A stretch of DNA of 64,000 nucleotides from Chloroflexota bacterium. Its GTDB lineage: Bacteria > Chloroflexota > Anaerolineae > JAAYEA01. The notes under the pieces are model-generated. The model saw only the letters and a program-made list of their open reading frames with translations, was not told the DNA's origin and did no database searches. Location of the stretch: contig DAITVZ010000002.1 in assembly GCA_036841525.1 (NCBI GenBank), forward strand, positions 5,693 to 69,692. Reading direction: 5' to 3'. Positions 1-63,528 of the stretch are shown here, piece after piece; within the stretch, counting starts at the first letter, position 1; each line of letters starts with the position of its first letter. The translations under genes were made by a program, and so were the position numbers.

Positions 1-152
1 GCCGCATGTGCGAGGCTATCGGGCATCCCGTGCAGCGGCTCATCCGCGTGCGTGTTGGCCCACTCGAATTGGGCGACCTGCCCAGCGGCCACTACAGGTC
101 GCTGACCAGACCGGAAATCGACCAGCTCATGAGGATGAAGGAAAAGCCATGA
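1..152 (+). CDS. rRNA pseudouridine synthase (RsuA/RluB family), C-terminal fragment; 5' end lies outside the window
   Basis: Frame-3 translation ...IGHPVQRLIRVRVGPLELGDLPSGHYRSLTRPEIDQLMRMKEKP* resembles the conserved C-terminal tail of RluB/RsuA-type pseudouridine synthases. Its TGA overlaps the cmk ATG (ATGA). rluB-cmk adjacency is common. Confidence 0.5.
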   Translation, partial: RMCEAIGHPVQRLIRVRVGPLELGDLPSGHYRSLTRPEIDQLMRMKEKP

Positions 153-4165: not shown

Positions 4166-4444
4166 CTAAAACTGAAGCTTGCCAAAGAAGCGCAGAAAGA
4201 GCTGCGAGGCGCGCTCGCGGCCCTCTTCGGTGATCACGACACGGCCCCCCAGGCCCGGCGCCGCTATGTAGCCCTGCTCGTAGAGCCGGTCCAGGCAATC
4301 AGGATCCCAGTGCGGACACGTGCGCGCCACATGGTACTGCTTGCAGGTCTCCAGATAGAGGAACACCAGGGCCAGTTCATCATCGCTACCCGTAAAGTCC
4401 ATCCAACCTCCCAACCGGCCGGGCCCGGCGACATCATCCTTCAC
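4166..4444 (-). CDS. hypothetical small protein (92 aa)
   Basis: ORF MKDDVAGPGRLGGWMDFTGSDDELALVFLYLETCKQYHVARTCPHWDPDCL... transcribed divergently from the sensor kinase. No recognised family; codon usage is consistent with a real gene. Confidence 0.4.
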   Translation of the reverse strand: MKDDVAGPGRLGGWMDFTGSDDELALVFLYLETCKQYHVARTCPHWDPDCLDRLYEQGYIAAPGLGGRVVITEEGRERASQLFLRFFGKLQF

Positions 4445-4538
4445 GCCGCGTGATTCTAGGCCGGTTGGGCATAATAGTCAAGCAGAGAGCCTCGCACGCC
4501 CGCGGCGTCCCTCGCTGCGCCCGGGTTGCCCGTTCCGG

Positions 4539-4566
4539 TTGACAACCTTCCCCAAACGCCTATACT
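4539..4566 (+). promoter_or_regulatory. sigma70-like promoter for the hybrid sensor kinase (TTGACA-16 nt-TATACT)
   Basis: TTGACA at 4539-4544, 16-nt spacer, TATACT at 4561-4566. A GGGAGAGGT ribosome-binding site precedes the ATG at 4640. Confidence 0.5.
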
Positions 4567-4639
4567 CGCAACACTTTCCTTGGTATCCCGTCCAGTCCCA
4601 CGCGAGCTGGCTTTGCTCGCAGGGAGAGGTAGCCGAAAC

Positions 4640-8245: not shown

Positions 8246-9487
8246 ATGCGCCGCGATGTCAAGCTCTATATGCTGGCCACCGCCGTGGCAGGGTTTTCGA
8301 TCCTGGAGGGCATCTATCCGGTCTTGCTCAATCTCTACCTGCTGCGGCTGGGCTATGGCGCAGCGTTCGTCGGCGTCGTCGGCGCCACTGGGATGCTCGG
8401 CTATGCGCTCTTTTCCTTCCCGGCGGGGATCGTCTCCCGGAGCATTGGAATTCGCCGGGGCTTGCTCTGGGGGCTCGGCATTGCCACCCTGAGCCACATC
8501 CTGCTGCCCGCCGGCGAGTTTCTGCCGCTGAGCGCGCGCGCTCCTTGGATTCTCGCCTGCTACCTTGTCGCCACCCTGGGCTTGTCGCTGTACTTTGTCT
8601 CGGCGGGGCCGTTTCTGGTGGGAGCCTCGCGGCCAGAGAACCGCAACATGGCCTTCTCCGCCCGGATGACCACCAGCATCCTGGCGGGATTCGTGGGCAG
8701 CCTAGCCGCCGGCGCGGCGCCAGGCTGGACCGCTGCCCTGCTGGGTCTATCCACAAGTGACCCTGCCGCGTACCGTTATCCCCTGATGGCGGCAGGCGTT
8801 CTCTGCCTCGTCGCCGTGGCGATGCTAACCACCACGAGCGAGGTGCAGGCCAGCGAGACGGCCCACGATGCGCAGGCCAGCCGCACAAGCTCCCGGGCCA
8901 TTGCTGTGCTCGTTGTCGTCATGTCCGGGATCGCCATGCTGCGCACCGCGGGCCTGGCCGCCTCGCGCATGTTCTTCAACGTCTACCTAGATGACGGACT
9001 GGGGATCCCCACTGCCCAGATCGGGATGATCTTCGCCGGGGTTCAGTTGGCCGCGCTTCCTGTCGCCATGGCCATGCCCGCGCTGGCTGCGCGCTTGGGC
9101 AGTTTTCGCGTCATCGTCGGCGGGTCGCTGGGCATCGCGGCGAGCATGCTCCCGCTGGCCTTGGTGCCCCACTGGCTGGCCGGAAGCATCGGCCGATTTG
9201 GCACCTACGCCTTCTCGGCCATCGCCGATTCGGCTCTGGGCGTATACCAACTCGAGATCGTGCCCGCGCGCTGGCGAGCCATCATCTCAGGGGCGGCCAC
9301 CACGGCGCTGGGCCTGAGTTGGGCTCTGGTCTCCTACCTGGGAGGCCGAGTCATCGCCACGGCCGGATTCCGGCCCCTCTTCCTGGCCACCGGCTTGCTG
9401 ACCACTCTGGGAACCTTTCTTTTCTGGCTCTATTTCCGCCGCCCTCGTGGCGAGTTTGCGGCGCAACACGCCCAACCAGGAGAGTAG
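8246..9487 (+). CDS. MFS transporter (12 TM predicted)
   Basis: Multiple hydrophobic spans and an MFS-like loop (GxxxDRxGRR-like: SRSIGIRRG). Start shown is the first ATG; a GGAGG at 8204-8208 plus an in-frame ATC at 8216 suggest a possible upstream non-canonical start. Confidence 0.75.
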   Translation: MRRDVKLYMLATAVAGFSILEGIYPVLLNLYLLRLGYGAAFVGVVGATGMLGYALFSFPAGIVSRSIGIRRGLLWGLGIATLSHILLPAGEFLPLSARAPWILACYLVATLGLSLYFVSAGPFLVGASRPENRNMAFSARMTTSILAGFVGSLAAGAAPGWTAALLGLSTSDPAAYRYPLMAAGVLCLVAVAMLTTTSEVQASETAHDAQASRTSSRAIAVLVVVMSGIAMLRTAGLAASRMFFNVYLDDGLGIPTAQIGMIFAGVQLAALPVAMAMPALAARLGSFRVIVGGSLGIAASMLPLALVPHWLAGSIGRFGTYAFSAIADSALGVYQLEIVPARWRAIISGAATTALGLSWALVSYLGGRVIATAGFRPLFLATGLLTTLGTFLFWLYFRRPRGEFAAQHAQPGE

Positions 9488-43040: not shown

Positions 43041-44042
43041 CTAGGCGTGCGCCCGCGCCTCCTCGATGAGCGCCAGCATGTTAGCAATGGGCACGTCGCT
43101 CTGGATCGCTTGCGCCGGCGAGGTGATGTACCCGCCGCCACGGCCCATGCGAGAGACCACCTCGCGCACCTCTGCACGCACCTGCGCCGGCGTGCCAAAG
43201 GGCAGGGTCTGCTGCGTGCTGATCCCGCCCCAAAAGGTCAGCTTGCCGCCGTACCGCTCCTTGAGCCGATAGATGTCCATGCACTCGGGCTGCACGGGGT
43301 TCAGCACGTCCACGCCGATCTCGATCAAGTCGGGCAGGATCGCCTCGATGTTGCCGCAGGAATGCAGCCAGACGTCCTTGCCCTCAGCATGCACCAGATC
43401 GTATTCGCGCTGCTCCCCCGGGGCGATCAGGTCGCGCCACGCGTTGGGTGACATGAGCAGGCCATGTTGCGAGCCCCAGTCGCTGCCCAGCAGGATGCCA
43501 TCGATGCCCTCGTAACCCAGCAGGTTCTCCAGCATGACCATGTTCTTGTCGATGATCTTGTTCAGCATCCGCCGCGCAAAGTCCTTGTGCCCGCCAATGT
43601 CGCCCAGGAAATTCTCGATCCCGCGCGCGCTGTTGGCCTTCTCAAAGTGGCTGCCATAGATCATCACCAGCACGTAGCAACTGGTCTCTTCTTTCAGGCG
43701 AATCAGCTCTTCCTGATAGGCCGTATAGCTGCCGTGGCCACGCGTCTTAGGCAAGACCACCGGGTCATCAAAGTCCCGGTAACTGGCGGGGATATCGTGC
43801 CAGCCCCACCAAGGCGCCGAGATCGCGTGCACATGGTTGCCCATCGCCACGGACAAGTCGGCCCCGGGAAAGTGCGGGGCGACGATCTCTTGGGCGTCGC
43901 GCGTCAGGTTGATAAAGTAGGGCACATGGCCGATCTCCTGGTGCGCGATCGCCGCCTGGACCACCTGCCTGCGTGTCAACACGATGTAGCTGCCTCCCGT
44001 TGTCTGGTCGCCCTGCCGATCAGCGCTTGCACAGCTCTTCAT
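43041..44042 (-). CDS. URO-D superfamily protein (MtaA/CmuA-like)
   Basis: VLTRRQVVQAAIAHQEIGHVPYF N-terminus, LLMSPNAWRDLIAP and HSCGNIEAILPDLIEIGVDVLNPVQ blocks. The first ATG overlaps the upstream gene by 23 nt, so the true start may lie downstream. Confidence 0.75.
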   Translation of the reverse strand: MKSCASADRQGDQTTGGSYIVLTRRQVVQAAIAHQEIGHVPYFINLTRDAQEIVAPHFPGADLSVAMGNHVHAISAPWWGWHDIPASYRDFDDPVVLPKTRGHGSYTAYQEELIRLKEETSCYVLVMIYGSHFEKANSARGIENFLGDIGGHKDFARRMLNKIIDKNMVMLENLLGYEGIDGILLGSDWGSQHGLLMSPNAWRDLIAPGEQREYDLVHAEGKDVWLHSCGNIEAILPDLIEIGVDVLNPVQPECMDIYRLKERYGGKLTFWGGISTQQTLPFGTPAQVRAEVREVVSRMGRGGGYITSPAQAIQSDVPIANMLALIEEARAHA

Positions 44043-45081
44043 AGACCTGCTGGTAATACAGCACCGCGTCCACCGGCGTGTTCGGGGGGATGTGGTTCCC
44101 CACGGCCAGGAAATAGCCGGGGCAGCGCTTCCCGATCGACATACACCGCTCTACCTCGGCGCGGATGGCGGCCTTGTCGCCGCCTAGCAGGATGCGGGTA
44201 TCGGCATTGCCGATGAAAAAGTGCGTGCGTCCATATCTCTCGGCGATATACCCCATGTCGGTGGTCGGCTCCATCACGAACCCGCTGATCCCGCAGGCGG
44301 CGATATCGTCGATGAACATCGTATAGTTGCCATCCGAGGTGAAGGCGATCTTTTTGCCGGACTCGACCAGCGGCGCAAAGAGCTTCTTATAGTTGGGAAA
44401 GATGTACTCCCGATACCACTTGGGCGAGATGAAGGGCCCCGCGCTCCAGACGATGTCGTCGTGCACCATGACCATGGGCAGGTCCGCCGCGCCCAGGGCG
44501 TCATAGTACTGCTGTATCCACCGCGCATAGCGGTTCGCCACCTCGCCAAAGGCGACGGGATCGGTCCCCGCCGCCAGCAGCAACAGGTCCCACCCAAAGA
44601 GGCCGATCATCCCCGAGATCATGGTGATATAGACGCCGGTCATGTTGACCTGATTGGGGTTGTTCCGCGCATTGCGGGCATAGGCCTCCTCGAAGCGCGC
44701 CTTGAGCTCGCCCAAATCCTTCTGCCCCAGCGACTCCCAGGGATCGAAGCGCAGCACGTCCTCGGGCGTCTGAAAGTGGGGGCTGGCCCTGGGTATCCGC
44801 CAGTCCACCCCACCCGCCGCATAGACCGCATGGCCCATATCCGTATAGTACTCGCCCAGTTCCCCGTGGCTGATCAGCGTGGACCAGGCAAAGTCGAAAT
44901 CCCAGGCCCGCTCGAGCGCCCGCCCGGCCCGCTGCTTTTTCACCTGCGAGCTCTCCGGGCCTGCTTTGATCCCCGTTACGGCCTCGATGACCCCCCAGTG
45001 CGTGGTCACCGAGTACTCGGTGTGCGGCACCCTCGCCGGCATTTCCAGGTTGATCGCGGCCCATCCATCTTGATAGGACAT
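44020..45081 (-). CDS. URO-D-like superfamily protein
   Basis: N-terminus WAAINLEMPARVPHTEY matches the URO-D-like N-terminal pattern. FISPKWYREYIFP is similar to the LSPRMYRE block of the paralogs. 353 aa. Confidence 0.6.
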   Translation of the reverse strand: MSYQDGWAAINLEMPARVPHTEYSVTTHWGVIEAVTGIKAGPESSQVKKQRAGRALERAWDFDFAWSTLISHGELGEYYTDMGHAVYAAGGVDWRIPRASPHFQTPEDVLRFDPWESLGQKDLGELKARFEEAYARNARNNPNQVNMTGVYITMISGMIGLFGWDLLLLAAGTDPVAFGEVANRYARWIQQYYDALGAADLPMVMVHDDIVWSAGPFISPKWYREYIFPNYKKLFAPLVESGKKIAFTSDGNYTMFIDDIAACGISGFVMEPTTDMGYIAERYGRTHFFIGNADTRILLGGDKAAIRAEVERCMSIGKRCPGYFLAVGNHIPPNTPVDAVLYYQQVYEELCKR

Positions 45082-49089: not shown

Positions 49090-50373
49090 TCACTGCAAGA
49101 ACTTGAGCTTCAGGGCCTCGATCTCGCCGTCGCCGATGGGCACGAGTTTGCCCAGGGGCAGGATGTCCAGCACCGACTTGGCGCTGAACTCGGCCACCTC
49201 CAGCCGGTCAAAGGCTTGCAGAACGTCGCCCCCGACGGACAGCACGCAGTCGTTCTGCACAAACATCACCGGCGTCTCGCCGGAGAGGGCCGCGGCGATC
49301 CTGCCCGGATCGCGATATTGCGCCCCATAGGAGATCAAGGGGATATCGCGCAGCAGAATATAGCTCTCCGGTATAGTCCTCGTATCGAAGGGCTGCCCGG
49401 CGATGGCAAAGGCCATCACATGGGGTGGCTGGGCGATGAGGATCGCCCCGATCTCCGGGTGCGCCTCATAGATCGCCTGATGCAAGCGCGCCGAGCGGCT
49501 GGGGTGCTTTCCACGCTCCCTTCTGCCCTCCCGGATCAGCACCAGATCCTCGATCTCCATGGAGCGCCGATCTTGGCCGGTCGGCGTGATGATAAAGCTA
49601 TCCGCATCCACCCGGGCAGAGGCCACTCCCTCGGTGCTGATCATCAGATACCGATCGCAGGCCCGGTGCACGATCTCGACGATCCGGCCCCGAACCTCCC
49701 GCTCCGGACTCGTGTGCTCTGCCGGGTCAAACTCGGGCAGAAGGCTCTCCCGCCCATCGAAATAGGCGATCTGCTCCTCGCTCAGGCGATGGACAGGGCC
49801 CAGACCCCGCGCCTGCAGCAACGTGCGGGCACAGAAATCCAGTGTCTCCAGCCGCTGAAAGGCAGCCCGGAGGTCCTCGCCGCCCGCGGCGATGCCGTGG
49901 TTCTCCAACAAGACCGTCTCATAGCCCTGCGCAAAGGTCTCCGCGATCACCTCTCCGAGCGCCTCGCTGCCGGGCAACGCGTAAGGCGCATAGCCCACCG
50001 CCCCGCATATCCGCCGGGCCTGCGGGATGATGTCGGTCACCGGCGTCTCTCGCATGATGCTGAACGACACCAGCGCCGGGGGGTGCGCGTGCACGATGGC
50101 GCGGAGGTCGGGCCGCCGCGCATAGATGGCGCGATGGAAGGGGTACTCGGAGGAGGGGCGGTGCGGCCCGACGATGCGGCCATCCGCCTGCACGCACATG
50201 ATGTCCTTGGGCGTGAGCGCGCCTTTGTCCACCCCCGCCGGCGTGATCCAGATGTCGTCGTTGGTGTCCCGAATGGACAGGTTCCCCCCGGAGAGGGTGG
50301 TCATGTTGTTACGATAGATGCGCTCCATGATGGCGACCAATTGGTCGCGCGGGTGCAGCAGGTGGAATCTCAT
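49090..50373 (-). CDS. tandem-fused class II aldolase/adducin-domain protein (two aldolase-II-like units; fuculose-/ribulose-phosphate aldolase-like)
   Basis: First unit carries the SGGNLSIRD N-terminal motif and the metal-binding histidine block HAHPPAL. Second unit (residues about 215-427) repeats the fold (ISTEGVASAR...IITPTG..., HPEIGAILIAQPPHV). Confidence 0.75.
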   Translation of the reverse strand: MRFHLLHPRDQLVAIMERIYRNNMTTLSGGNLSIRDTNDDIWITPAGVDKGALTPKDIMCVQADGRIVGPHRPSSEYPFHRAIYARRPDLRAIVHAHPPALVSFSIMRETPVTDIIPQARRICGAVGYAPYALPGSEALGEVIAETFAQGYETVLLENHGIAAGGEDLRAAFQRLETLDFCARTLLQARGLGPVHRLSEEQIAYFDGRESLLPEFDPAEHTSPEREVRGRIVEIVHRACDRYLMISTEGVASARVDADSFIITPTGQDRRSMEIEDLVLIREGRRERGKHPSRSARLHQAIYEAHPEIGAILIAQPPHVMAFAIAGQPFDTRTIPESYILLRDIPLISYGAQYRDPGRIAAALSGETPVMFVQNDCVLSVGGDVLQAFDRLEVAEFSAKSVLDILPLGKLVPIGDGEIEALKLKFLQ

Positions 50374-50935: not shown

Positions 50936-51793
50936 CTAACCCAGTGCTTTGACCCACGCCTCGAAGAGCGAAGGCCAACCGGCAACGGCGCCGCCCTTCA
51001 CGCCCAGGCCAAAACCATGCCCGCCGCGCTCAAAGAGATGCATCTCGACCGGAACCTTGGCGGCGCGCAGGCCCTGGAAGAAGGACACGCTCCCCTCCAC
51101 CGGCAGGTGGTCATCGCACGCCTGCACGATAAAGGCCGGCGGCGTCTGCGCCGAGATGGCCATGAGGTGCTTCTCGCGAATCCCCGGGTAGACGGGCAGC
51201 AGGAAATCGGGGCGAGAGCTGAAGCGTTCCACCGCGTCAGCGGCATCAGCTCGCCCCTCGGCCCAGTTCGTGCCGAGGCTGGCCACCAGGTGCCCACCGG
51301 CCGAGAACCCCATCGCGCCGATCCTCTTTGGATCCAGGCCCCAAGCCTGCGCGCGGCTGCGCGCGATCTGCATGGCGCGGCGCGCATCGGCCTCGCCGGC
51401 GGCGATCGCGTTCACACGGTCATCGGGGCTGCCGGTGCGGTACTTGACCACAAAGGCCGCCACGCCCAGCCCGTTCAGCCAGCGCGCCACATCCCAGCCC
51501 TCCTTGTCGATGGCAAGGTGCTGGAAAGCGCCGCCGGGGAAAACCACAATGGCCATGCCGGTCGCCTGATCCTGCGGCGGCAGGAAGGCTTGCATGGTGG
51601 GGCGCGTCACCCCCTTGATCGCTCGATTGCGCTGGTGGCCGGGGCCCTCGAGCTCTCGCACCAGCACCTGCTCTTCCGCGGCGCAGTTCCAGCCGGGAAC
51701 CTCGCCGGGCCACAGAGGCTCGGCAACCTGAAGCATTGGATCCGTGCTGTCCCAGGCGAACGGGCTGGGTCGCGCGGGTAGATTGGTGGCCAT
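50936..51793 (-). CDS. alpha/beta hydrolase (esterase/lipase, fold-3-like)
   Basis: Nucleophile elbow GFSAGGHL and an HGGG-like oxyanion region (VVFPGGAF). Start at MATNLP, 144 nt inside the tool ORF, with a GAGGAG ribosome-binding site. Confidence 0.8.
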   Translation of the reverse strand: MATNLPARPSPFAWDSTDPMLQVAEPLWPGEVPGWNCAAEEQVLVRELEGPGHQRNRAIKGVTRPTMQAFLPPQDQATGMAIVVFPGGAFQHLAIDKEGWDVARWLNGLGVAAFVVKYRTGSPDDRVNAIAAGEADARRAMQIARSRAQAWGLDPKRIGAMGFSAGGHLVASLGTNWAEGRADAADAVERFSSRPDFLLPVYPGIREKHLMAISAQTPPAFIVQACDDHLPVEGSVSFFQGLRAAKVPVEMHLFERGGHGFGLGVKGGAVAGWPSLFEAWVKALG

Positions 51794-51860
51794 GGCATCT
51801 CCTCGGGCTAGGTTGTCTCGCCGGCCTGACCCATGGGGGCCAAGCTGGCTCGCGAGCTGC

Positions 51861-51889
51861 ATCATATCCCGGGAGCGGCGCAGCGACAA
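51861..51889 (-). promoter_or_regulatory. sigma70-like promoter on the minus strand for the alpha/beta hydrolase gene (TTGTCG-17 nt-TATGAT)
   Basis: Reverse complement reads TTGTCG ctgcgccgctcccggga TATGAT. A hairpin GGCGGGG-N14-CCCCGCC (51898-51925) just upstream may terminate the small ORF. Confidence 0.4.
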
Positions 51890-51952
51890 ATGGCAGAGGC
51901 GGGGCCTGGCACGCAGAACCCCGCCTCTGAGCGTCACTTGGTCCGTCTTTGG

Positions 51953-52174
51953 CTAGCCGAGCGCCCTCAGGTCCGCGTCGATGGCCGCGAGCTTTTCCCT
52001 GGTCAGCCCCGCTGCCGCCGCTTCTGGATAGTACGAGACGGACTTGAGCGTCTCATAGTACACGTCATAGATGTTCGGATGCCTGGACGCGCCAGGGATG
52101 TGCTTCTCCACCACCGCCTTGGCTCGCTCATCGGCGAGCAAGTCCTTGATCGTCGAGTTCATCGAGAACGCCAT
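51953..52174 (-). CDS. hypothetical small protein (73 aa)
   Basis: ORF MAFSMNSTIKDLLADERAKAVVEKHIPGASRHPNIYDVYYETLKSVSYYPEAAAAGL... lies between two hydrolase genes, with a hairpin downstream. No recognised family. Confidence 0.35.
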   Translation of the reverse strand: MAFSMNSTIKDLLADERAKAVVEKHIPGASRHPNIYDVYYETLKSVSYYPEAAAAGLTREKLAAIDADLRALG

Positions 52175-52258: not shown

Positions 52259-54430
52259 CTAACCCAGAGCGCCCTGCAGCGCCATCAGGGCCCGGATATC
52301 TCCCGCGATCTTGATCTTGCCGGTCATGTAGGCCACCATCGGGTTCAGCTCGCCCCGGAGGAGCTTCATGGCGTCCTCCGCCTGCATGGTGACCGTCGCC
52401 GTCGCCTCTCCAGCCCCGGGGCCGGCCTCTGCGCGGCAAGCGCCGCTCTCAAAGACGAAGCGATACAGCCGCCCCTCGCCCAGGTCGAACTTGAGCACGG
52501 CGTTGAGGCCGGGGTTCTTGCCGTTCAGCTTGGCCGCCAACGCCAGAAAGGCCTCGGGCACCACGGGTTGAGGCGGAGCAGGCGGCTCCGGCGCGCGCTG
52601 CGGCGCCACGCCTTGCTGAGCAGCCGTCACGCCAGTGGGCTGAGCCCAGCGCTCGCGCAAAAAGTGCGCGGCCATCTTGGGGCGGCGGTCCCGCGTGAAA
52701 ACGCCCTTTCGGTTCATCCCTCCGGCGCGCATCGGGCTCTGCCCGACCTTAAAGTCGGCGAAATTCCAGACGTGCAGCCCCGCCACATAGGGCCGCGCCG
52801 CCGCCACATCCAGATAGCGTCGCAGCATCTCCACCTGGTACTCCTCGCTCCAGACCTCCGGCGGGTCAGCATGCACGCCAGCGAGCGAGTCGGCGCCGAA
52901 TTCGCTGATCACGATGGGCTTGCCCAACTGCTGGTGCAGCCCATCCAGCTCTTGCGCCAGCATCCGGGCCCCCTCATCGAGCTGCCCGGCCTGGACGTAC
53001 CAGCCCCAGTAGCGGTTGATGAACACCACATCCGCCAGCGCCATCCACTCCACCGGGCACCCCATCACCGCCGCCGATGTGGCTGGCCGGGTGGGATCCA
53101 GATCGCGCACCACGCTGTAAAGCTCGCGGAAGAAGGCGAGGGCCGAGGCGTCCGCCGCGTTGGGCTCGTTCCGCCCGCCGTCGCCGCCCATCATCCGCCG
53201 CATCGCGTTGGGAGGCATCGGCTCGTTGGCCACGCTCCACATGATCACGCTGGGATGGTTCTTGTCGCGCGCCACCAGCTCGCGCAGTTGCCGCTTGCAC
53301 AGCCCCAAGCGCGTCTGGATATTCTCCTCGCCGTCCTCGAAGAACAGCCCCACCGCCGGGATCTCGTCCACCACCAGGGTGCCCTCGCGATCGGCGATGT
53401 CCATGGCCTCATCCGAGTAGGGATAATGGGAGGTCCGGTACGAGTTGGCGCCGATCCACTTGAAGAGCGCGGCGTCCTTGATGATCAGGGGCATGTTCAG
53501 ACCGCGGCCGTGCACCGGGAAATCCTCGTGCTTGCCAAAGCCCTTCAGCATAATCGGCTTGCCATTGAGCAGCAGTCGATCGCCTTGCACGCTGATGGTC
53601 CGGATGCCCACGGGCAGCCGATAGCGATCGATGACCTCCCCCGCGTCAAGCGTCACCTCCAGATCGTAGAGGAAGGGGTTGTCCGGGGACCAGAGGCGCG
53701 CCTTGGGCACGCGGATCGCCGCCTCCGCGACGCTCCCTTGGAAGGACAGAGGCGCGTCGGCCTCGAAACCCTGCCCCCGCACCCTCACACGTCCGGCGCC
53801 GCCCTCGCCACGTTGGATGACCTCGACGTCCACGATGCCATCCTCGCCGACCAGCACCGTGTTCACGGTGACGTCCTCGATGCGCCTAGGGGGGACCGCG
53901 AAAAGGATCACGGGGCGATGCAAGCCCCCGTAGGGGAAAAAGTCGAAATTGGTGCTGGGGAACCCGCTCATAAAGCCACCGAAACCGCCGCGGGCCACGT
54001 TGCCTGGCGGCACCCGCGTCGGCTTGAGCTCGTTCTCCACACCGATGGCGATGAGGTTTTCTGCACCCCACCTGACCTGCGGGGTGATCTCCAGGTCGAA
54101 GGGCAAGTGCCCGCCCTCGTGCGAGCCCACTATCTCCCCGTTGATCCACACCTTGGCAGCATAGTTGGCGGAGCCAACGCGCACGAACAGCTCCTGGCCA
54201 TTCCATCCACTGGGCACATAGAACGCGCGCGCATACCAGGCCAACCCCATATAGTCGCGCGTGTCCTGGAACTGCTCGTTCCAACTCCCCGGCACCGCGA
54301 TCTGGCGCGGAGCGCTCAGCCCGTGCTGCCAGCCCTCCGCCTCGCCGACCTGCCCGGGATCGAGCTGGAACCCCCAGAAACCCGACAGGTCCAGCAAGTT
54401 GCGAATATCGTTCTGCTGCGGGTAGAGCAT
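52259..54430 (-). CDS. GH2 beta-glucuronidase-like enzyme with C-terminal SCP2 sterol-carrier domain
   Basis: The N-terminus MLYPQQNDIRNLLDLSGFWGFQLD...IAVPGSWNEQF parallels the E. coli GusA start (MLRPVETPTREIKKLDGLWAFSLD...IAVPGSFNDQF). The GH2 catalytic region includes WSVANE. The last roughly 110 aa form an SCP2 fold (YMTGKIKIAGDIRALMAL). Start at MLYPQQ with an AAGGAGGT ribosome-binding site, 141 nt inside the tool ORF. Confidence 0.8.
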   Translation of the reverse strand: MLYPQQNDIRNLLDLSGFWGFQLDPGQVGEAEGWQHGLSAPRQIAVPGSWNEQFQDTRDYMGLAWYARAFYVPSGWNGQELFVRVGSANYAAKVWINGEIVGSHEGGHLPFDLEITPQVRWGAENLIAIGVENELKPTRVPPGNVARGGFGGFMSGFPSTNFDFFPYGGLHRPVILFAVPPRRIEDVTVNTVLVGEDGIVDVEVIQRGEGGAGRVRVRGQGFEADAPLSFQGSVAEAAIRVPKARLWSPDNPFLYDLEVTLDAGEVIDRYRLPVGIRTISVQGDRLLLNGKPIMLKGFGKHEDFPVHGRGLNMPLIIKDAALFKWIGANSYRTSHYPYSDEAMDIADREGTLVVDEIPAVGLFFEDGEENIQTRLGLCKRQLRELVARDKNHPSVIMWSVANEPMPPNAMRRMMGGDGGRNEPNAADASALAFFRELYSVVRDLDPTRPATSAAVMGCPVEWMALADVVFINRYWGWYVQAGQLDEGARMLAQELDGLHQQLGKPIVISEFGADSLAGVHADPPEVWSEEYQVEMLRRYLDVAAARPYVAGLHVWNFADFKVGQSPMRAGGMNRKGVFTRDRRPKMAAHFLRERWAQPTGVTAAQQGVAPQRAPEPPAPPQPVVPEAFLALAAKLNGKNPGLNAVLKFDLGEGRLYRFVFESGACRAEAGPGAGEATATVTMQAEDAMKLLRGELNPMVAYMTGKIKIAGDIRALMALQGALG

Positions 54431-54602
54431 CGGTACCTCCTTGTTCCCATGCCGGATGGCCCCTATTATCCGCAGCCAGGCCGATCTGTCAAGTCCTGCC
54501 GGGGCGGCAACTTGACGATCGGGCGATTGCGTGCTTAACTGGCCTGGCAGCCGCGCGGACGCCTTCGCCACGGCAGCTTCGGCATCAGGATGGGAGGTCC
54601 AG

Positions 54603-55529
54603 ATGACCCTATCGCCCTGCCCAGAGCGAACAGTTCAGGCCAACGGAATCGAGATCTGCTACGAGGCCTTCGGCAGCCCCAGCGACCCGCCTTTACTGCT
54701 GATCATGGGCCTCGGCGGACAGATGATCTCCTGGGACGATGGTTTCTGCCAGGCGCTCGCCGACCAAGGCCTCTATGTCATCCGCTTTGATAACCGCGAC
54801 GCGGGCCGCTCCACCCGCTTTGACCAGGCGCCCTCGCCCAGCACCACCGACATGATACGCGCGACCCTGTTCAGAAGCCCCCTCCACGCGCCCTACACGC
54901 TGCGCGACATGGCCGACGATGCCGCCGGGCTTCTCTCGGCGCTGGGCATCGAGTCAGCTCACCTCGCGGGGATCTCCATGGGCGGCATGATCGCCCAGAC
55001 GGTGGCGATCCATCACCCCGACAAGGTTCGCTCGCTGATCTCCATGATGTCCAGTGTGGGCGACCCGGAGCGGGGGCTGTTGGTGCGACCCAAGATCCTG
55101 CTGGCTTTGCTACAGGCGGGCCCTCGAGACCGTGAGGCGCAGCAGGAGCGGGCTGTCGAGATCATGCGGATGATCAGCGGGCCCGGATTTCCCATCGATG
55201 AGGAGCGCGTCCGGGCTGGCGCCGCTCGCTCCTTCGAGCGAGGCGCCCCGCCCAGCGGCACGGCGCGCCAGTTGGCCGCCATCGTGGCCTCGGGGAGCCG
55301 CCGCCAGGCGCTTGGCGGCATCACCGCGCCGACTTTGGTCATCCACGGCGAGGCCGACCCCCTCCTCTCCGTCGAGGGTGGCATCGCCACGGCCAAGGCC
55401 ATCCCTGGCGCCAAGTTGCTGATTATCCCCGGCATGGGCCACGGCATCCCGCACGCCGCCGCGCCACAGATCGTTGATGCCATCATCGAACACATCACCG
55501 CTGCCGAGAAAGGAATCGTCCATGGCTGA
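54603..55529 (+). CDS. alpha/beta hydrolase
   Basis: HGxGG-like region (LLLIMGLGGQ) and nucleophile elbow GISMGGMIA. ATG at 54603 with a GGGAGG ribosome-binding site. Confidence 0.8.
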   Translation: MTLSPCPERTVQANGIEICYEAFGSPSDPPLLLIMGLGGQMISWDDGFCQALADQGLYVIRFDNRDAGRSTRFDQAPSPSTTDMIRATLFRSPLHAPYTLRDMADDAAGLLSALGIESAHLAGISMGGMIAQTVAIHHPDKVRSLISMMSSVGDPERGLLVRPKILLALLQAGPRDREAQQERAVEIMRMISGPGFPIDEERVRAGAARSFERGAPPSGTARQLAAIVASGSRRQALGGITAPTLVIHGEADPLLSVEGGIATAKAIPGAKLLIIPGMGHGIPHAAAPQIVDAIIEHITAAEKGIVHG

Positions 55530-56964
55530 TCGCGTCGATCGCTCCTTGGCCAACCTGCTGGAGGCCCCGCGGGATAGCGAGGATCACGCCCTTGCGGCGC
55601 GCTACGCGCCGGTCATCCGCTTCAACGACCGCGAGCCCTTCTTGCCCTTGGCCGCGGGCTATACCATCTTTCGCGAAACGGGCGACTCGCCCTCTTTTCG
55701 CCAAGGCCGCCACATCGCGCTGGTCGCGCCGGGGCAGCCGCCAGCCGCTCTGGCCATCGAGTATGCCATCTGGTGGGACTGGGATATCGGTCATCTCTAC
55801 GAGCTGGAACACGCCTGGGTCTACGTGGATGAGCGAGGCCAGGTGGTCCGCTGCGAGGCGAGCTGGCACGGCGGCCACCACGACATGCGCTGGCAGGGCC
55901 GCATCGAGCTGGAGGGCGACCACCCCGTGCTCTATAGCGAGCCGGGCAAGCACGCCTTTGCGCCGACCACCGACTGGTTCGCCGAGCGCCGCGCCAAGCT
56001 TCCGCGTTCGGAGACCAGCGAACTGGCTGGGATGAGCGGGGTGCTCATGGCCACTTACTTGGAGGGTCACGTCCACCCCGCGCCGCTGCACACCACCCTG
56101 GTGCGCACCTTCCTCCAGCAGCACGCCTTCGAGCCCGCCCCCTCCTTCGGCAAGCGTTTTGCGATCACCGCCGACATGCTGGTCCCCTGGCCAGCGCTGG
56201 AGGCCTGGATGCCCCAGCGAATCAATCACTGGCTGGAGCGCCTCGAGCGCGAGATCCCCAGGGTGGACTACCGCTTCTTGCGCATCGGCCACCGCGGCGC
56301 CCGAGCCCACGCGCCCGATAACACCATCGCCGGATTCCGCAAGGCGGTGGGGCTAGGCGCGGATATGGTCGAGATCGATGTGCAGCGCACGGCCGACGGC
56401 GAGATCGTCGTCGTGCACGACGGCAGCCTGTCCGATGCGGCGGGGCGGCACTGGCCCATTGGCAAGAGCACTCTCGCCCAGCTCAGAGCCATCGACCTGG
56501 GCGGCGGCGAGCGGATCCCCACCCTCTCGGAGGCGCTGCTCCATTGCCGCGACGCCGGGCTGGGTGTCTACATCGAGATCAAGGATGGCGGCGCCGTCCG
56601 CGGCGTGGTGGATTTCCTCGTCGAGCACGAACTGGAACAGCACTTCTGGGTCGGCTCTTTCCGCCCAGACTGGCTGGCCGAGGCCAAGGCTGTCGCGCCA
56701 CAGGTCGTAACCTCCATCCTCTTTGGCTCCGCCGAGCTGGATCCCGTCAAGCTGGCCCAGTCCATCGGCGCCGACTATGTGCATCCTTGCTGGGGCGGCC
56801 GTCCCAACTCGAGCCAACTGGTGACGCCCCAATGGATGGCCCGGGTGCGCGAGGCCGGGCTGGGCGTGGTCATCTGGAACGAGGAGCGCCCATCCGAGAT
56901 CGCCGCGCTGCGGCAGATCGGCGTGGATGGGGTCTGCAGCGACGCTCCCGAACTGCTCAGATAG
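55522..56964 (+). CDS. two-domain protein: N-terminal domain of unknown function plus C-terminal glycerophosphodiester phosphodiesterase (GDPD) domain
   Basis: The C-terminal roughly 230 aa carry GDPD blocks (IGHRGARAHAPDNT, ADMVEIDVQRTADGEIVVVHD, GVYIEIK). The N-terminal roughly 250 aa are unassigned. The start overlaps the upstream stop by 8 nt. Confidence 0.7.
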   Translation: MADRVDRSLANLLEAPRDSEDHALAARYAPVIRFNDREPFLPLAAGYTIFRETGDSPSFRQGRHIALVAPGQPPAALAIEYAIWWDWDIGHLYELEHAWVYVDERGQVVRCEASWHGGHHDMRWQGRIELEGDHPVLYSEPGKHAFAPTTDWFAERRAKLPRSETSELAGMSGVLMATYLEGHVHPAPLHTTLVRTFLQQHAFEPAPSFGKRFAITADMLVPWPALEAWMPQRINHWLERLEREIPRVDYRFLRIGHRGARAHAPDNTIAGFRKAVGLGADMVEIDVQRTADGEIVVVHDGSLSDAAGRHWPIGKSTLAQLRAIDLGGGERIPTLSEALLHCRDAGLGVYIEIKDGGAVRGVVDFLVEHELEQHFWVGSFRPDWLAEAKAVAPQVVTSILFGSAELDPVKLAQSIGADYVHPCWGGRPNSSQLVTPQWMARVREAGLGVVIWNEERPSEIAALRQIGVDGVCSDAPELLR

Positions 56965-56972
56965 GAGTCGAT

Positions 56973-58271
56973 ATGCCCGACCGGCCCAACATCCTGCTTA
57001 TCCTGGCCGACCAGCTCTACTCCGGCGCCCTGAGCGCCGTCGGCAACCCCTGGGTCAGCACCCCACACCTGGATTCCTTGGCCCTGGGCGGCGCGCGCTT
57101 CTGCCGCGCCTACTGCACCGCGCCGGTGTGCGGCCCCGCCCGCGCCAGCCTCCTCACCGGGCGCATGCCCCACGCCCTCGGGGTGGACTATAACCACGAT
57201 CCCCTCAGCCCCGCTGTTCCAGACCTGGGCCACCTCATCCGCCGCGCGGGCTATGATACGGCCTATGTGGGCAAGTGGGGGCTCAAGACCCAGCCGGGCT
57301 CGCCGGGGTTCGACTTTCCGCCGCTTCCCGCCGGGACGCGCCTGCGCTTGGGGCTGGAGAGCGACGACGCCATCGCCGACACAGCGGCGGCCTATATCCG
57401 CGAGCCAAGGGAACGCCCCTTCCTACTGGCCGTGGGCCTCACCAACCCCCATGATATCTGCTACTGGGTGATGAACGAGGATCTGGGCATCCCCACCGAG
57501 GGCGCGCTGCCGCCCTTGCCGCCCAATTTCGGCATCCTGGCCGACGAGCCGGAATTCGTCCAGCGCTGTCGGGCGCGGCTTCATTACGGCCAGGAGGTCT
57601 CGTATACCCTCAAGTGGGATGAGGCGCGCTGGCGCAGGTATCTCTATACCTATTACCGCCTGGTGGAGCGCGTCGATGCCAGCATCGGGCGCATCTTGGA
57701 CGCGCTGCGAGAGGCTGGGCACGAAGAGGACACCCTCGTGGTCCTCACCAGCGACCATGGCGAGGGCGTCGCCGCCCACCATTGGGTGGTCAAGCTGGTG
57801 TTCTACGAGGAGCCGGCGGTGATCCCCTTGCTGCTGCGCTGGCCGAGGGTGATCCCCGCTGGCTGGACGGACAGCCAGCGCCTGGTCTCCGGTCTGGATC
57901 TTCTGCCTACGCTCTGCGCAGTGGCCGGAGCGACGCCGCCTGAGGGGATCGAGGGTCGCAGTCTGCTCTCGCTTCTGTCAAGTTCAGATCAGACCATTCA
58001 CGATTATGTCATTTCCGAGCTGCAGCCTGACCCCGAGCACCGGGACTTGGGCGGACGCATGTTGGTGACGCCCCGCTGCAAGTATTGCGCCTTCTCCGAG
58101 GGCGCTCGACCTGAGCTGCTCTTCGATCTGGCCGCCGACCCTGGTGAGACGCACAACCTGGCTACCGACCCCGATCACGCCACGGCTCTTTTGGAGCACC
58201 GCCGCCTGCTGCGCGAGTGGATGAGCGCCCACGGCGATCCGCTGGCCCTGCCCACCCTCCAACAAGGATAG
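56973..58271 (+). CDS. sulfatase (formylglycine-dependent, Cys-type)
   Basis: Sulfatase signature CTAPVCGPARASLLTGR (C-x-P-x-R) near the N-terminus and GKW metal/substrate block. 432 aa. AGGAG ribosome-binding site. Confidence 0.85.
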   Translation: MPDRPNILLILADQLYSGALSAVGNPWVSTPHLDSLALGGARFCRAYCTAPVCGPARASLLTGRMPHALGVDYNHDPLSPAVPDLGHLIRRAGYDTAYVGKWGLKTQPGSPGFDFPPLPAGTRLRLGLESDDAIADTAAAYIREPRERPFLLAVGLTNPHDICYWVMNEDLGIPTEGALPPLPPNFGILADEPEFVQRCRARLHYGQEVSYTLKWDEARWRRYLYTYYRLVERVDASIGRILDALREAGHEEDTLVVLTSDHGEGVAAHHWVVKLVFYEEPAVIPLLLRWPRVIPAGWTDSQRLVSGLDLLPTLCAVAGATPPEGIEGRSLLSLLSSSDQTIHDYVISELQPDPEHRDLGGRMLVTPRCKYCAFSEGARPELLFDLAADPGETHNLATDPDHATALLEHRRLLREWMSAHGDPLALPTLQQG

Positions 58272-61282: not shown

Positions 61283-62050
61283 ATGGGCGTCTATGAGGAT
61301 TTCGCCGAGTTCTATGCCCAAGGCCCCTATACGCGTTTCAGCGCCAACATGGCTGAGCTGATCCAGCCGGTCCTGGCCAGCTTGGGCGCCTCCCCTTCGA
61401 TGGTGCTCGACGTAGCCTGCGGCGAGGGGACGTTCGCCATCGAGATGGCGCGCAAGGGCTACTTTGTCACGGGCATTGACCGCTCCAGCCGCATGCTTGA
61501 CCTCGCGCAGGCCAAGGCCAAGGCCGCGGGGGTCAAGGTCAATTTCATGCCGCGCAACATGGTTCACCTCATCTTTGACGACTCGTTCGATCTCACCACC
61601 TGCTGGTTCGATAGCCTGAACTATATCTGGACCACCGTCGAGCTGGAGTCCTGTTTTGAAGGGATCTTCCGCGGCCTGCATGCCGGTGGGTGGTTCATCT
61701 TTGACATCAATACCATCTATGGGCTCTCGGTGCGCAACGTCCAGCACCCAGCCCACGTCGAGGTCGACACCCGTGACGCTTTCGCCATCCACCAGCCCAG
61801 CTATGACTATGAGCTAAACATGGCCCAGACCAAGATCACCCTCTTTCGCCGCAAGGGATTGGACTGGGATCGCGTGGAGGAACTCCATATCCAGCATGGC
61901 TTTGCCTGGTACGAGATTCGTAACGCCCTACAGAAGGCGGGGTTCCGCATCGTCGGCAACTGGGGCAGTCTCAGAGACATGAGCCCAGTGGAGAAGAACA
62001 GCCCGCGTATTTGGGTCGCCGCGCAAAAGCCGCCCGCGCAGACCGTCTAG
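61283..62050 (+). CDS. class I SAM-dependent methyltransferase
   Basis: Motif I VLDVACGEGTF, an acidic motif II (GIDRS) and post-I blocks. A promoter-like TTGCCC-17-TATCCT lies upstream. AAGGAGG ribosome-binding site. Confidence 0.8.
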   Translation: MGVYEDFAEFYAQGPYTRFSANMAELIQPVLASLGASPSMVLDVACGEGTFAIEMARKGYFVTGIDRSSRMLDLAQAKAKAAGVKVNFMPRNMVHLIFDDSFDLTTCWFDSLNYIWTTVELESCFEGIFRGLHAGGWFIFDINTIYGLSVRNVQHPAHVEVDTRDAFAIHQPSYDYELNMAQTKITLFRRKGLDWDRVEELHIQHGFAWYEIRNALQKAGFRIVGNWGSLRDMSPVEKNSPRIWVAAQKPPAQTV

Positions 62051-62076
62051 CCGCCACTCCGAGCCCAAGGAGCGCC

Positions 62077-63528
62077 ATGAACCTGGTCATCTTTCTGCCC
62101 GACGAGATGCGCGCCGAGAGCCTGTCCTGCTACGGGCACCCCCTGGTCCGCACTCCCTACTATGATCGGTTATGTGAAGAGGGAGTACGCTTTGACCAAT
62201 GTTATGTCCAGCATACAGTCTGTACTCCATCCCGATGCAGCCTGATGACCGGCTGGTACCCTCATGTGGCCGGGCACCGAACGCTCTGGCACCTGCTCCG
62301 CCCGCACGAGCCCAGCCTGCTCCGCGACCTCAGATCCGCCGGCTACCACATCGAGTGGCACGGCAAGAACGACCTATACTCCCCCGGCTCCTTTCCGCTA
62401 GCCCTGGACACCTACACCCACGAACCCGGTGGGCATGCGGGCCCCAACCCCTATGCCATCGACGACCCGCACTACTACAGCTTTGACTACCGGCCCTTTC
62501 CGGGCAGCCTGCACGAGACGGGCGACATGCGCAACGTGCAAAAGGGCATCGACTTTCTCCATTCGCGAGCGGCCCAGGCCGCGCCATTTGTGCTTTATCT
62601 CCCGCTCTCGATGCCGCACCCCCCTTATGCCGCGCCGGAGCCCTTTCACAGCATGTACGACCCGGCTGACCTGCCGCCGCTGCGCCCAGCCGGCCTGCCC
62701 AACAAGCCCGACTACTATGATCTGATCCGCCGCTACCGCCGTCTGGATGAGCTCGATGAGCCGTTCTTCCGTCGGATTCAGGCCACCTATCTGGGCATGT
62801 GCACCTATTGCGACTGGATGCTGGGCCAGCTCTTGCGCGCCCTGGACGAGTCGGGCCTGGCTGACGATACCGCCCTCATCGTCTCCGCCGATCATGGCGA
62901 CTGGGCTGGCGACTATGGTTTGGTGGAAAAGTGGCCCAGCGCCCTCGACGAGGCGCTCACCCGCGTCCCCCTGATCATCCGCGCGCCCAATGGCAAGGGG
63001 GGCCACGTGGTGCGCGAGCCCATGGAGCTCCTGGACGTCATGGCCACCTGCTATGACCTTGCCGGCGTCAGGCCGCAGCATACCCACTTTTCTCGCTCGC
63101 TCATGCCCCAGCTTGGCGGCGCCGCAGGCGATTCGCGGCGCGCCGTCTTTGCCGAGGGCGGCTACGACCGTCACGAGCCCTTTGCCTTCGAGGGCCGCAC
63201 CGCCAGCCGCGGCGCCTCCCAAGCGATCTTTGCCGATCGTGCCCAGATCTATTACCCCAAGGGCCTGCAACAGCAGGAGCATCCCGATTCGGTCTGCCGC
63301 TCGGTCATGATCCGCCTCGGCGACCACAAGCTGGTGCTGCGCACCCACGGCGTGAACGAGCTCTACGACCTGAAGCGCGACCCGCGCGAGCTGGACAACC
63401 GCTACGACGACCCCGCGCTGGCCTCGATCCGGGCGGATCTGAAGCAACGCCTGCTCGATTGGTATGTGTCCACAGCCGATGTGGTCCCCTGGGACGAGGA
63501 TCCCAGGGGGCTCCCTCCACAAAGGTGA
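62077..63528 (+). CDS. sulfatase (formylglycine-dependent, Cys-type)
   Basis: Signature CTPSRCSLMTG (C-x-P-S-R), GKW-like block HGKNDLY, and the C-terminal sulfatase region. 483 aa. Confidence 0.85.
   Translation: MNLVIFLPDEMRAESLSCYGHPLVRTPYYDRLCEEGVRFDQCYVQHTVCTPSRCSLMTGWYPHVAGHRTLWHLLRPHEPSLLRDLRSAGYHIEWHGKNDLYSPGSFPLALDTYTHEPGGHAGPNPYAIDDPHYYSFDYRPFPGSLHETGDMRNVQKGIDFLHSRAAQAAPFVLYLPLSMPHPPYAAPEPFHSMYDPADLPPLRPAGLPNKPDYYDLIRRYRRLDELDEPFFRRIQATYLGMCTYCDWMLGQLLRALDESGLADDTALIVSADHGDWAGDYGLVEKWPSALDEALTRVPLIIRAPNGKGGHVVREPMELLDVMATCYDLAGVRPQHTHFSRSLMPQLGGAAGDSRRAVFAEGGYDRHEPFAFEGRTASRGASQAIFADRAQIYYPKGLQQQEHPDSVCRSVMIRLGDHKLVLRTHGVNELYDLKRDPRELDNRYDDPALASIRADLKQRLLDWYVSTADVVPWDEDPRGLPPQR

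Follow-up and report, generated by a model that had tools for sequence, protein, structure and literature searches.

In a 64,000-nucleotide stretch of DNA from a Chloroflexota bacterium (contig DAITVZ010000002.1; hereafter the window), we identified a gene that encodes a beta-glucuronidase (GUS) of glycoside hydrolase family 2 (GH2) fused to a C-terminal SCP2 domain. The complete coding sequence (52259..54430, minus strand) consists of 723 codons and a TAG stop. Judged by its sequence, the body of this protein is a cytoplasmic retaining GH2 exo-beta-D-glucuronidase with a complete predicted active site; sequence comparison and structure prediction identify the tail as a flexibly tethered, canonical SCP2 domain. 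GUS and SCP2 are both well-known families, and their combination is an undescribed but widespread variant: a literature search for GH2 enzymes or glucuronidases fused to SCP2 found no paper describing one, and the databases label these fusion proteins simply "beta-glucuronidase". By analogy, we propose with a probability of roughly 40% that the SCP2 tail captures hydrophobic aglycones or amphipathic glucuronides, or carries off the released aglycone.

The GUS body and the SCP2 tail

Three Pfam domains, each scoring above its gathering score, make up residues 1–597 (coordinates within the gene refer to the minus strand). These are the N-terminal sugar-binding domain (PF02837 Glyco_hydro_2_N; residues 14–180, including D163; 53891..54391; E = 2.5e-19, 70.3 bits), the immunoglobulin-like beta-sandwich domain (PF00703 Glyco_hydro_2; residues 183–277; 53600..53884; 2.1e-13, 51.4 bits) and the TIM-barrel catalytic domain (PF02836 Glyco_hydro_2_C; residues 280–596; 52643..53593; 1.3e-67, 228.6 bits). 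The NCBIfam equivalog for beta-glucuronidase (NF007538) matches the protein with 598.4 bits against a cutoff of 544, whereas LacZ4, GalA and other beta-galactosidase or GH2 equivalogs fall far under their own cutoffs. In a sequence search of the PDB, the closest solved structures are all beta-glucuronidases (6xxw, 4e-135; E. coli GUS 3k46/3k4a, ~5e-132), and the alignments to GUS structures cover residues 1–599 only. These results bear out the original prediction that the N-terminal ~600 residues form a GusA-like GH2 beta-glucuronidase.

Identity to E. coli GusA is 43% over 565 aligned residues, with the numbering verified on E413, E504, N566 and K568. The published sequence criteria for GUS enzymes comprise more than 25% identity to reference proteins, the three Pfam domains, the pair of catalytic Glu residues, the N/Y residues and the NxKG motif (PMC12660308, PMC6712278), and the body of the fusion protein shows every one of these features. 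HMMER alignment to E. coli GUS combined with inspection of the codons assigns the predicted catalytic acid/base to E403 in the motif N402-E403-P404 (codon 53222..53224; E. coli E413) and the predicted nucleophile to E510 (codon 52901..52903; E. coli E504). The NxKG motif for recognition of the glucuronate carboxylate corresponds to N573-R574-K575-G576 (52703..52714, translating to NRKG; E. coli N566/K568). N402, Y474 and Y478 are the equivalents of the E. coli active-site residues N412, Y468 and Y472, and the further active-site residues D163, H335, W555 and R568 are also present. As a whole, the GUS signature residues are invariant or nearly so among 56 aligned fusion proteins; strictly invariant are D163, N402, E403, P404, Y474, Y478, E510, N573, K575 and G576.

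The region equivalent to E. coli residues 352–388 (Loop 1) comprises 23 aa instead of the 37 aa of GusA, and the long Loop 1 insertion at E. coli position 356, which marks the E. coli-type class of enzymes for small-molecule glucuronides, is absent. Directly after the catalytic NEP motif, residues 405–430 (53141..53218) form a clade-specific insertion that makes this segment ~19 aa longer than in E. coli GusA. It lies at the position of Loop 2, E. coli residue 416 (PMC6712278), is common to tail-less members of the clade as well, and includes a Gly-rich segment of low confidence (residues 417–421) with a predicted local distance difference test score (pLDDT) below 50. The insertion of the window protein alone also contains a second NEP (residues 421–423), a decoy that misleads simple pairwise alignment; we judged the resulting pairing of this non-conserved motif with E. 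coli E413 to be an artefact of gap placement.

The body is followed by an Ala/Pro-rich linker of 26 aa (residues 598–623; 52562..52639) that is predicted to be flexible, with pLDDT below 50 at residues 600–617. Across 72 fusion proteins this linker varies between 18 and 46 aa, contains 19% Ala and 19% Pro, and has no conserved positions. The Pro/Ala-rich segment quoted in the original prediction (APQRAPEPPAPPQPVVPE) is present as written, as is the quoted SCP2 motif (YMTGKIKIAGDIRALMAL). The SCP2 domain itself occupies residues 624–723 (52262..52561). Pfam PF02036 matches residues 641–722 with an E-value of 1.3e-13 and a score of 51.6 bits (gathering score 21.3), covering profile positions 18–100 of 101. 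Used alone as a query against the PDB, the tail finds the SCP2-like domain of MFE-2 (1ikt, 8e-7) and SCP2 (1c44), with 7tl5 as a further match, and a profile built from 37 tails matches the SCP2 structures 1qnd and 1c44 at ~7e-11. The Alkyl_sulf_C family (PF14864) scores 17.7 bits, below its cutoff of 27; the likeness of the tail to this family is one of fold only.

Structure prediction leads to the same assignment. In an AlphaFold2 model of residues 599–723 the core has a pLDDT of ~90 and an alpha/beta topology (H-E-E-E-E-H-H-E-H; five strands, four helices). A Foldseek search of the PDB with this model returned 46 matches at E ≤ 1e-3, all of them chains with the SCP2 fold and 1ikt at the top (1.7e-7). 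Among them are archaeal AF1534, rabbit and human SCP2, UbiJ, the C-terminal domains of SdsA1, Pisa1, SdsAP and YjcS, and SCP2-fold domains of Eis acetyltransferases. Several of the fold matches bear ligands: 1ikt (described as "liganded"), mosquito SCP2 with a C16 fatty acid (1pz4), and SdsA1 with 1-dodecanol and with decane-sulfonate. The alternative that the tail is a GH2-type C-terminal beta-sandwich is ruled out by the alpha/beta model and by these fold matches; the SCP2 assignment is thus upheld by Pfam, by PDB sequence search and by fold search alike. The model of the full-length protein (pLDDT 82.8) is confident on either side of residues 600–617, and its predicted template modelling score of 0.84 says nothing about docking of the tail to the body, as the tail makes up only 14% of the residues. 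In the 56 aligned fusions G710 is invariant, and conservation reaches 90% or more at over 12 further positions of SCP2. On average the SCP2 cores of the family carry almost no net charge (median −0.5, pI 4.3–9.6), and an analysis of their charge did not find a conserved basic surface for membrane binding.

We place the start of the gene at the ATG at 54430, because this codon is preceded at a distance of 5 nt by the Shine-Dalgarno sequence AGGAGG (54436..54441, read directly from the sequence) and at ~35 nt by a sigma-70-like promoter match (TTGACA-16-GATAAT, 54465..54492, 11 of 12 consensus positions), because a protein in a public collection (P0001) has the same 723 aa with 100% identity, and because all homologs of the fusion protein start with MLYP. 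The promoter-like site is a consensus match only; two such sites occur in the region against 0.3 expected from shuffled sequences. The fusion gene appears to have its own promoter. A longer open reading frame (ORF) that opens with GTG and extends to 54571 was ruled out as the gene, since the promoter-like site and AGGAGG would both fall within the extension. The N-terminus shows no signal-peptide character and matches that of cytoplasmic GusA. The 90%-identity cluster of P0001 includes the fragments NLS77381.1 and NLS76240.1 (NCBI) from a metagenome-assembled genome (MAG) of "Chloroflexi bacterium". The G+C content of the window is ~65% throughout.

Distribution of the fusion and relatives of the tail

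Among the best 120 homolog clusters (formed at 90% identity, with a tail counted when at least 90 aa follow the GUS body), 72 carry the tail, and nearly all of these are annotated with PF02036; the remaining 48 end 0–44 residues past the GUS body. In contigs from one genome per species in GTDB, six of the best 80 loci reach through the tail, all of them from Anaerolineae/Anaerolineales MAGs. Both counts are lower bounds for the size of the family. Every fusion protein with a source name comes from an "Anaerolineae bacterium" MAG (Chloroflexota). Tail-less relatives among the best 80 GTDB loci occur in Caldilineaceae, Chloroflexia, Thermomicrobiales, Bacteroidota and others. Tail-less relatives with 63–69% identity are otherwise the same enzyme. 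The original prediction had called the fusion uncommon, and this holds to the extent that the literature search was empty and that no solved GH2 structure matched the tail; as a statement about frequency it has to be revised, because the architecture belongs to a recurrent family seen in 72 of the 120 best clusters and in six Anaerolineae MAGs.

Mean pairwise identity across the 72 fusions is 47% for the SCP2 core and 64% for the GUS body. In the pair formed by the window protein and P0002, its closest relative, identity is 89% over the SCP2 core, 80% over the body and 40% over the linker. A tree of the GUS body built by neighbour joining shows fusions intermingled with tail-less forms, and several tail-less proteins retain linker-like stubs of 15–44 aa rich in Pro, Ala and Ser. 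The tree of the tails reproduces the clades of the GUS body (F1 0.67–1.0), with a Mantel correlation of r = 0.41 that was reached by none of 999 permutations. The simplest reading of these sequence data, inferred from crude neighbour-joining trees, is one ancestral fusion in an Anaerolineae GUS clade, followed by vertical co-divergence under purifying selection and by repeated loss of the tail.

Comparison of GUS-body columns with the presence of the tail gave a maximal mutual information of 0.34 against a permutation 95% level of 0.24, a test that does not control for phylogeny. The top tail-associated columns are variable, surface-type positions, and we see no convincing signal in them. A tblastn search with the 72 SCP2 cores against 85 loci found no stand-alone SCP2 gene in the 3-kb flanks of tail-less GUS genes; its sole trace of such a gene is a marginal match in locus L009 (E = 5e-4). 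The tail behaves as an optional add-on module.

Relatives of the tail outside GUS were sought by an exhaustive HMMER scan of 1.84 billion representative proteins, which returned 717 proteins at E ≤ 1e-3. In this library of 50%-identity representatives the GUS-SCP2 fusions themselves collapse to very few clusters. Besides the GUS fragments P0126 and P0137, the top multidomain matches are MFE-2-like proteins in which a short-chain dehydrogenase/reductase (SDR) is joined to three or four SCP2 domains and a MaoC hydratase, an acyl-CoA synthetase with two SCP2 domains, a thiolase/ChsH2-OB-SCP2 protein, an SDR with two SCP2 domains and a URO-D-SCP2 protein (P0197). Since most of the nearest non-GUS relatives are fatty-acyl or steroid-CoA enzymes, these sequence matches support the assignment of the tail to the hydrophobic-ligand-binding type of SCP2. 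In the bacterial MFE-2-like proteins (P0124, P0132 and P0161 among the matches) the three to four SCP2 domains stand in tandem between the SDR and hydratase domains, and one protein of 2131 aa contains eight stretches matching the SCP2 tail; these multi-SCP2 architectures are known here as search matches only.

The closest stand-alone relative of the tail is P0121 (136 aa, 65% identity; L086 3554-3964). Its separate gene follows a GT2 – methyltransferase – DUF2142/PMT_2 (GT-C) glycosyltransferase cluster on the downstream side at a distance of 14 bp. GT-C enzymes use polyprenyl-phosphate-linked sugars, and the context of P0121 gives a hint that polyprenyl-linked sugars may be bound. Among the fusion loci inspected, only that of L005 has PMT_2-like genes on the flanks of the fusion gene; a general association of PMT_2/GT-C genes with SCP2, as L086 and L005 had suggested, was discarded because other loci do not replicate it. 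Locus L022 contains, at 22-2034 (+) and cut at the locus edge, a gene for a tri-domain protein (D-2-hydroxyacid dehydrogenase – SCP2, 54.5 bits – class II aldolase) with Ala/Pro/Ser-rich linkers, ~1 kb upstream of the GUS-SCP2 gene of the same MAG.

Possible roles of the tail

In the reading that we favour, the SCP2 module would be a tethered binder of hydrophobic ligands, the lipid counterpart of a carbohydrate-binding module (CBM). With amphipathic beta-glucuronides, be they long-chain alkyl, steroid, triterpenoid, hopanoid or other lipid glucuronides, it would grip the apolar aglycone and thereby raise the local concentration of substrate at the GUS active site; alternatively, it would remove an insoluble aglycone product. 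The GUS body would do the chemistry unaided, and the tail would alter which substrates reach it. The disordered linker of variable length and the lack of any GUS column that strongly tracks the tail argue for such a tethered accessory module, and the identities within the closest pair (89%, 80% and 40%), the 72 independent clusters and the congruent trees of tail and GUS body argue that the tail is under selection. There is a precedent for a C-terminal SCP2-like domain on a hydrolase for amphipathic substrates such as SDS in the type III alkylsulfatases (PMC5426288). A comparable role has been proposed for the SCP2-like domains of these alkylsulfatases (SdsA1, Pisa1, SdsAP) and for those of peroxisomal MFE-2/SCPx. 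The original prediction had suggested lipid, steroid or hopanoid glucuronides as substrates, which by analogy remain plausible: the canonical SCP2 domain and its fatty-acyl and steroid-CoA relatives speak for them, whereas gene neighbourhoods without lipid genes and the attachment of SCP2 to a dehydrogenase and an aldolase speak against them.

A bolder form of the same idea, which strikes us as rather unlikely, would make the Anaerolineae GUS-SCP2 proteins dedicated lipid-glucuronide hydrolases with the tethered SCP2 as a built-in "activator protein". In this form SCP2 would extract a glucuronide lipid embedded in a membrane or micelle and present it to the GH2 active site; candidate lipids would be a glucuronosyl glycerolipid, a hopanoid, steroid or triterpenoid glucuronide, or an acylated glucuronide glycolipid.

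Several observations weigh against capture of hydrophobic aglycones by the tail. We read 14 fusion neighbourhoods (the window, L001, L002, L003, L004, L005, L087, L088, the P0056 locus, L089, L090, L091, L006 and L022, those of L006 and L022 by ORF or Pfam reading) and found no sterol, hopanoid or fatty-acid genes in them. The window in particular forms a neighbourhood for glycan utilisation in which lipid and sterol genes are missing, which points to soluble oligosaccharide substrates; a LacI-type sugar regulator beside the fusion gene in one sub-clade points in the same direction. The same lineage joins SCP2 to enzymes for hydrophilic substrates (the tri-domain protein of L022; URO-D-SCP2 in P0197), and repeated loss of the tail implies that it is dispensable in many lineages. 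Finally, the Loop 1 region of the fusion protein is 14 aa shorter than that of E. coli GusA; among gut GUS enzymes, a full Loop 1 goes together with efficient processing of small-molecule glucuronides (PMC6712278).

In another explanation, SCP2 is a non-lipid domain for oligomerisation, stabilisation or autoinhibition by capping of the active site, and the substrates are imported, soluble glucuronate-capped oligosaccharides hydrolysed in the cytoplasm. We consider this unlikely. It would fit the glycan-degradation genes in the window, the LacI regulator adjoining the fusion gene in one sub-clade, the PaeX-like carbohydrate acetylesterase downstream that is syntenic in L090, and the occurrence of SCP2 between 2-hydroxyacid dehydrogenase and class II aldolase (L022) and after URO-D (P0197), none of them lipid enzymes. 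In the alkylsulfatases, moreover, the SCP2-like domain contributes like the other two domains to a large dimer interface (PMC5426288), and Eis-type domains are among the fold matches of the tail. Against a structural role, a long disordered linker of 18–46 aa is ill-suited to a fixed interface, no positions of the GUS body co-vary with the presence of the tail as would be expected of a docking surface, the tail-less relatives with 63–69% identity are otherwise the same enzyme, and in sequence the tail is nearest to SCP2 modules of lipid enzymes and not to Eis-type or structural SCP2 folds.

Distinctly less probable is that SCP2 docks the soluble enzyme on the inner face of the membrane for hydrolysis of membrane glucuronide lipids or lipid-linked glycan intermediates. 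Proteins of the SCP2 type transfer lipids and interact with membranes. The transfer activity is described in PMC2529247. The position of P0121 (65% identical to the tail) behind a GT2 – methyltransferase – GT-C cluster, the PMT_2-like genes that flank the fusion gene in L005, and the presence of UbiJ, an isoprenoid-quinone-binding SCP2, among the fold matches would all be consistent with membrane targeting. However, the PMT_2 association occurs in just one of the 14 fusion neighbourhoods, the near-neutral SCP2 cores do not have a conserved cationic face as a family feature, and no amphipathic or transmembrane segment was noted.

Two further alternatives concern the body and the existence of the tail. 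That the catalytic domain acts on another uronide or glycoside, for example a galacturonide, could be argued from the beta-galacturonidases 6ncw and 7vqm among the PDB matches of the GH2 body, from the unusual ~19-aa insertion at the Loop 2 position beside the active site, and from the resemblance of the downstream esterase to pectin acetylesterase. We find it very improbable, since characterised GUS enzymes match at ~1e-132 compared with 5e-57 for a galacturonidase, NF007538 clears its curated cutoff while the LacZ4, GalA and other equivalogs fall far short of theirs, and the published GUS signature residues are all there, invariant or nearly so. Even harder to believe is that the tail is a functionless leftover or an artefact of assembly or gene calling. 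The GUS tree mixes tail-less forms with fusions, and the linker-like stubs of 15–44 aa in some of them show that loss is tolerated; yet the same in-frame architecture recurs in 72 independent clusters from many samples, the SCP2 core of the closest pair has stayed at 89% identity and the body at 80% while the linker drifted to 40%, SCP2 positions including G710 are conserved, and the domain folds confidently in the AlphaFold2 model.

Much work has been devoted to beta-glucuronidases, both as reporter enzymes and for their part in reactivating drugs and hormones in the gut. Accessory features such as loops and C-terminal domains are used to predict their substrate class, and SCP2-tailed GUS enzymes stand outside that scheme. 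Recruitment of hydrophobic aglycones by the tail, if true, would add to the glycoside hydrolases a novel kind of accessory module that binds lipids instead of carbohydrates, would suggest lipidic glucuronides as substrates in Anaerolineae-rich sediments, mats and bioreactors, and could offer a modular engineering route to glycosidases for poorly soluble glycoconjugates, saponins and steroid glucuronides among them. If SCP2 serves as a built-in activator, the fusion would be a bacterial single-polypeptide analogue of the saposin or GM2-activator plus glycosidase systems and the first lipid-transfer domain to serve a glycoside hydrolase as a CBM does. A non-lipid tail would widen the range of bacterial uses for the SCP2 fold.

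Neighbouring genes and known systems

The 14 neighbourhoods show no conserved operon partner beyond close relatives, and no GusB/GusC-type or Uxa/Uxu uronate-catabolism genes were seen adjacent to the fusion gene. Located ~85 nt downstream of the fusion gene in the window is a conserved ORF of 73 aa (51953..52174, minus strand) with its own purine-rich ribosome-binding site. Counterparts occur in L090 (3876-4097, a called gene at the same position, 90% identical) and in L006 (4696-4902, 54%), with a spacing from the GUS-SCP2 gene of ~85–96 nt across the window and these relatives. In the closest relative this ORF is more conserved (90%) than the enzyme (80%). Pfam, NCBIfam and the PDB gave no match to it; the ORF is probably a genuine small-protein gene and possibly a co-transcribed partner of the fusion gene in some lineages. 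Further downstream follows an alpha/beta-hydrolase esterase (BD-FAE/Abhydrolase_3; 50936..51937, minus strand) that is nearest to the pectin acetylesterase PaeX, below the cutoff of that family, and is syntenic in the closest relative (L090 4258-5058). Its true start is probably internal to the maximal ORF, which contains a promoter-like site at 51861..51889 (consensus match). Upstream of the fusion gene and divergent from it is an Abhydrolase_1 esterase that resembles macrolide esterases, again below the cutoff. The arrangement of these four genes (Abhydrolase_1 esterase, fusion, 73-aa ORF, PaeX-like esterase) is kept in the 80%-identical relative L090.

Elsewhere in the window are genes for a LacZ-type GH2 beta-galactosidase of 1050 aa (10784-13936, plus strand), a GH95 alpha-L-fucosidase (34772-37069, plus strand) and two SGSH-like sulfatases (56544-58271 and 62011-63528, plus strand), and together with the PaeX-like acetylesterase this cytoplasmic-looking set suggests the use of sulfated, fucosylated or acetylated glycans containing uronic acids. 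A GDPD phosphodiesterase ORF (55474-56964, plus strand) has an N-terminal stretch of ~270 aa without a Pfam match; in its maximal form it runs into the end of the alpha/beta-hydrolase gene upstream, which leaves the true start uncertain. A class II aldolase of 427 aa with two Aldolase_II stretches (49090-50373, minus strand) is encoded 2 kb downstream of the fusion gene. The window also holds three URO-D-family paralogs (13960-15204, plus strand; 43041-44042 and 44020-45081, minus strand) and a gene of the MttB family, similar to trimethylamine methyltransferases (33277-34749, plus strand), which together may serve methyl-transfer or demethylation metabolism; a URO-D gene is also found near the fusion gene in L001. 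Also encoded in the window are MFS transporters, one of which matches MFS_2, as well as an enolase-superfamily protein and a CoA-transferase.

Throughout one sub-clade of 28 members, all of them fusions, a gene for a LacI-family regulator lies directly downstream of the GUS-SCP2 gene (L003 10286-11308; L087 8472-9494; L088 8380-9318; P0056 locus 8317-9339); the LacI DNA-binding domain was not detected in the regulator of L088. In E. coli, gusA is controlled by the TetR-type repressor GusR. Locus L088 also contains an IS200/IS605-type element (4249-5933; Y1 transposase fragments and an OrfB/TnpB-like gene) 68 bp upstream of its GUS-SCP2 gene.

Among known systems, E. coli GusA/UidA and the solved GUS enzymes (3k46, 6xxw, 4jhz, 4jkm) share with the fusion protein the three-domain body, the pair of Glu residues, the NxKG motif and the active-site residues. 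GusA and the fusion protein also have in common an N-terminus without signal-peptide likeness and a start of the form MLxP. In contrast to these enzymes, the fusion protein adds the ~26-aa linker and the 100-aa SCP2 domain, which no solved GH2 matches, and it departs from E. coli GusA in its Loop 1 region, which is 14 aa shorter, and in the 19-aa insertion at the Loop 2 position. The large GUS enzymes of gut Bacteroides (6d8g, 5uj6, 8dhl; chains of 878–889 aa) likewise extend the GUS core at the C-terminus by accessory domains; however, their alignments to the fusion protein end at about residue 599 and none of them matches the SCP2 tail. Among the GUS enzymes of the human gut, those with Loop 2 have signal peptides (PMC6712278); the N-terminus of the fusion protein shows no sign of one.

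The best sequence and fold matches of the tail are the SCP2-like domain of MFE-2/HSD17B4 (1ikt) and SCPx/SCP2 (1c44, 1qnd). MFE-2 also has SCP2 at the C-terminus of catalytic domains, and bacterial MFE-2-like SDR-SCP2-hydratases are the nearest non-GUS relatives of the tail. However, MFE-2 and SCPx act on acyl-CoA thioesters in beta-oxidation, whereas the partner of the tail is a glycosidase. The peroxisomal targeting signal is a C-terminal tripeptide; the tail ends in LQGALG and not in such a tripeptide. GM2 activator and saposins are lysosomal lipid-binding proteins that present glycolipids to soluble exoglycosidases. For the mechanism proposed here they are a conceptual analogue only, with unrelated folds, on separate polypeptides and in the eukaryotic lysosome, and we claim no homology.

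The best analogue for how such an enzyme may work on amphipathic substrates is provided by the type III alkylsulfatases SdsA1, Pisa1, SdsAP and YjcS, which combine a metallo-beta-lactamase fold with a dimerisation domain and a C-terminal SCP2-like domain. The model of the tail superimposes on these SCP2-like domains with query-normalised TM-scores of 0.57–0.68 at 1.9–3.4 Å, and in sequence the likeness shows in the weak Alkyl_sulf_C match and the match to 7tl5. The catalytic fold and chemistry of the alkylsulfatases are unrelated to those of GUS. Their SCP2-like domain is packed into the dimer (PMC5426288), whereas the tail of the GUS fusion is predicted to be held by a disordered linker.

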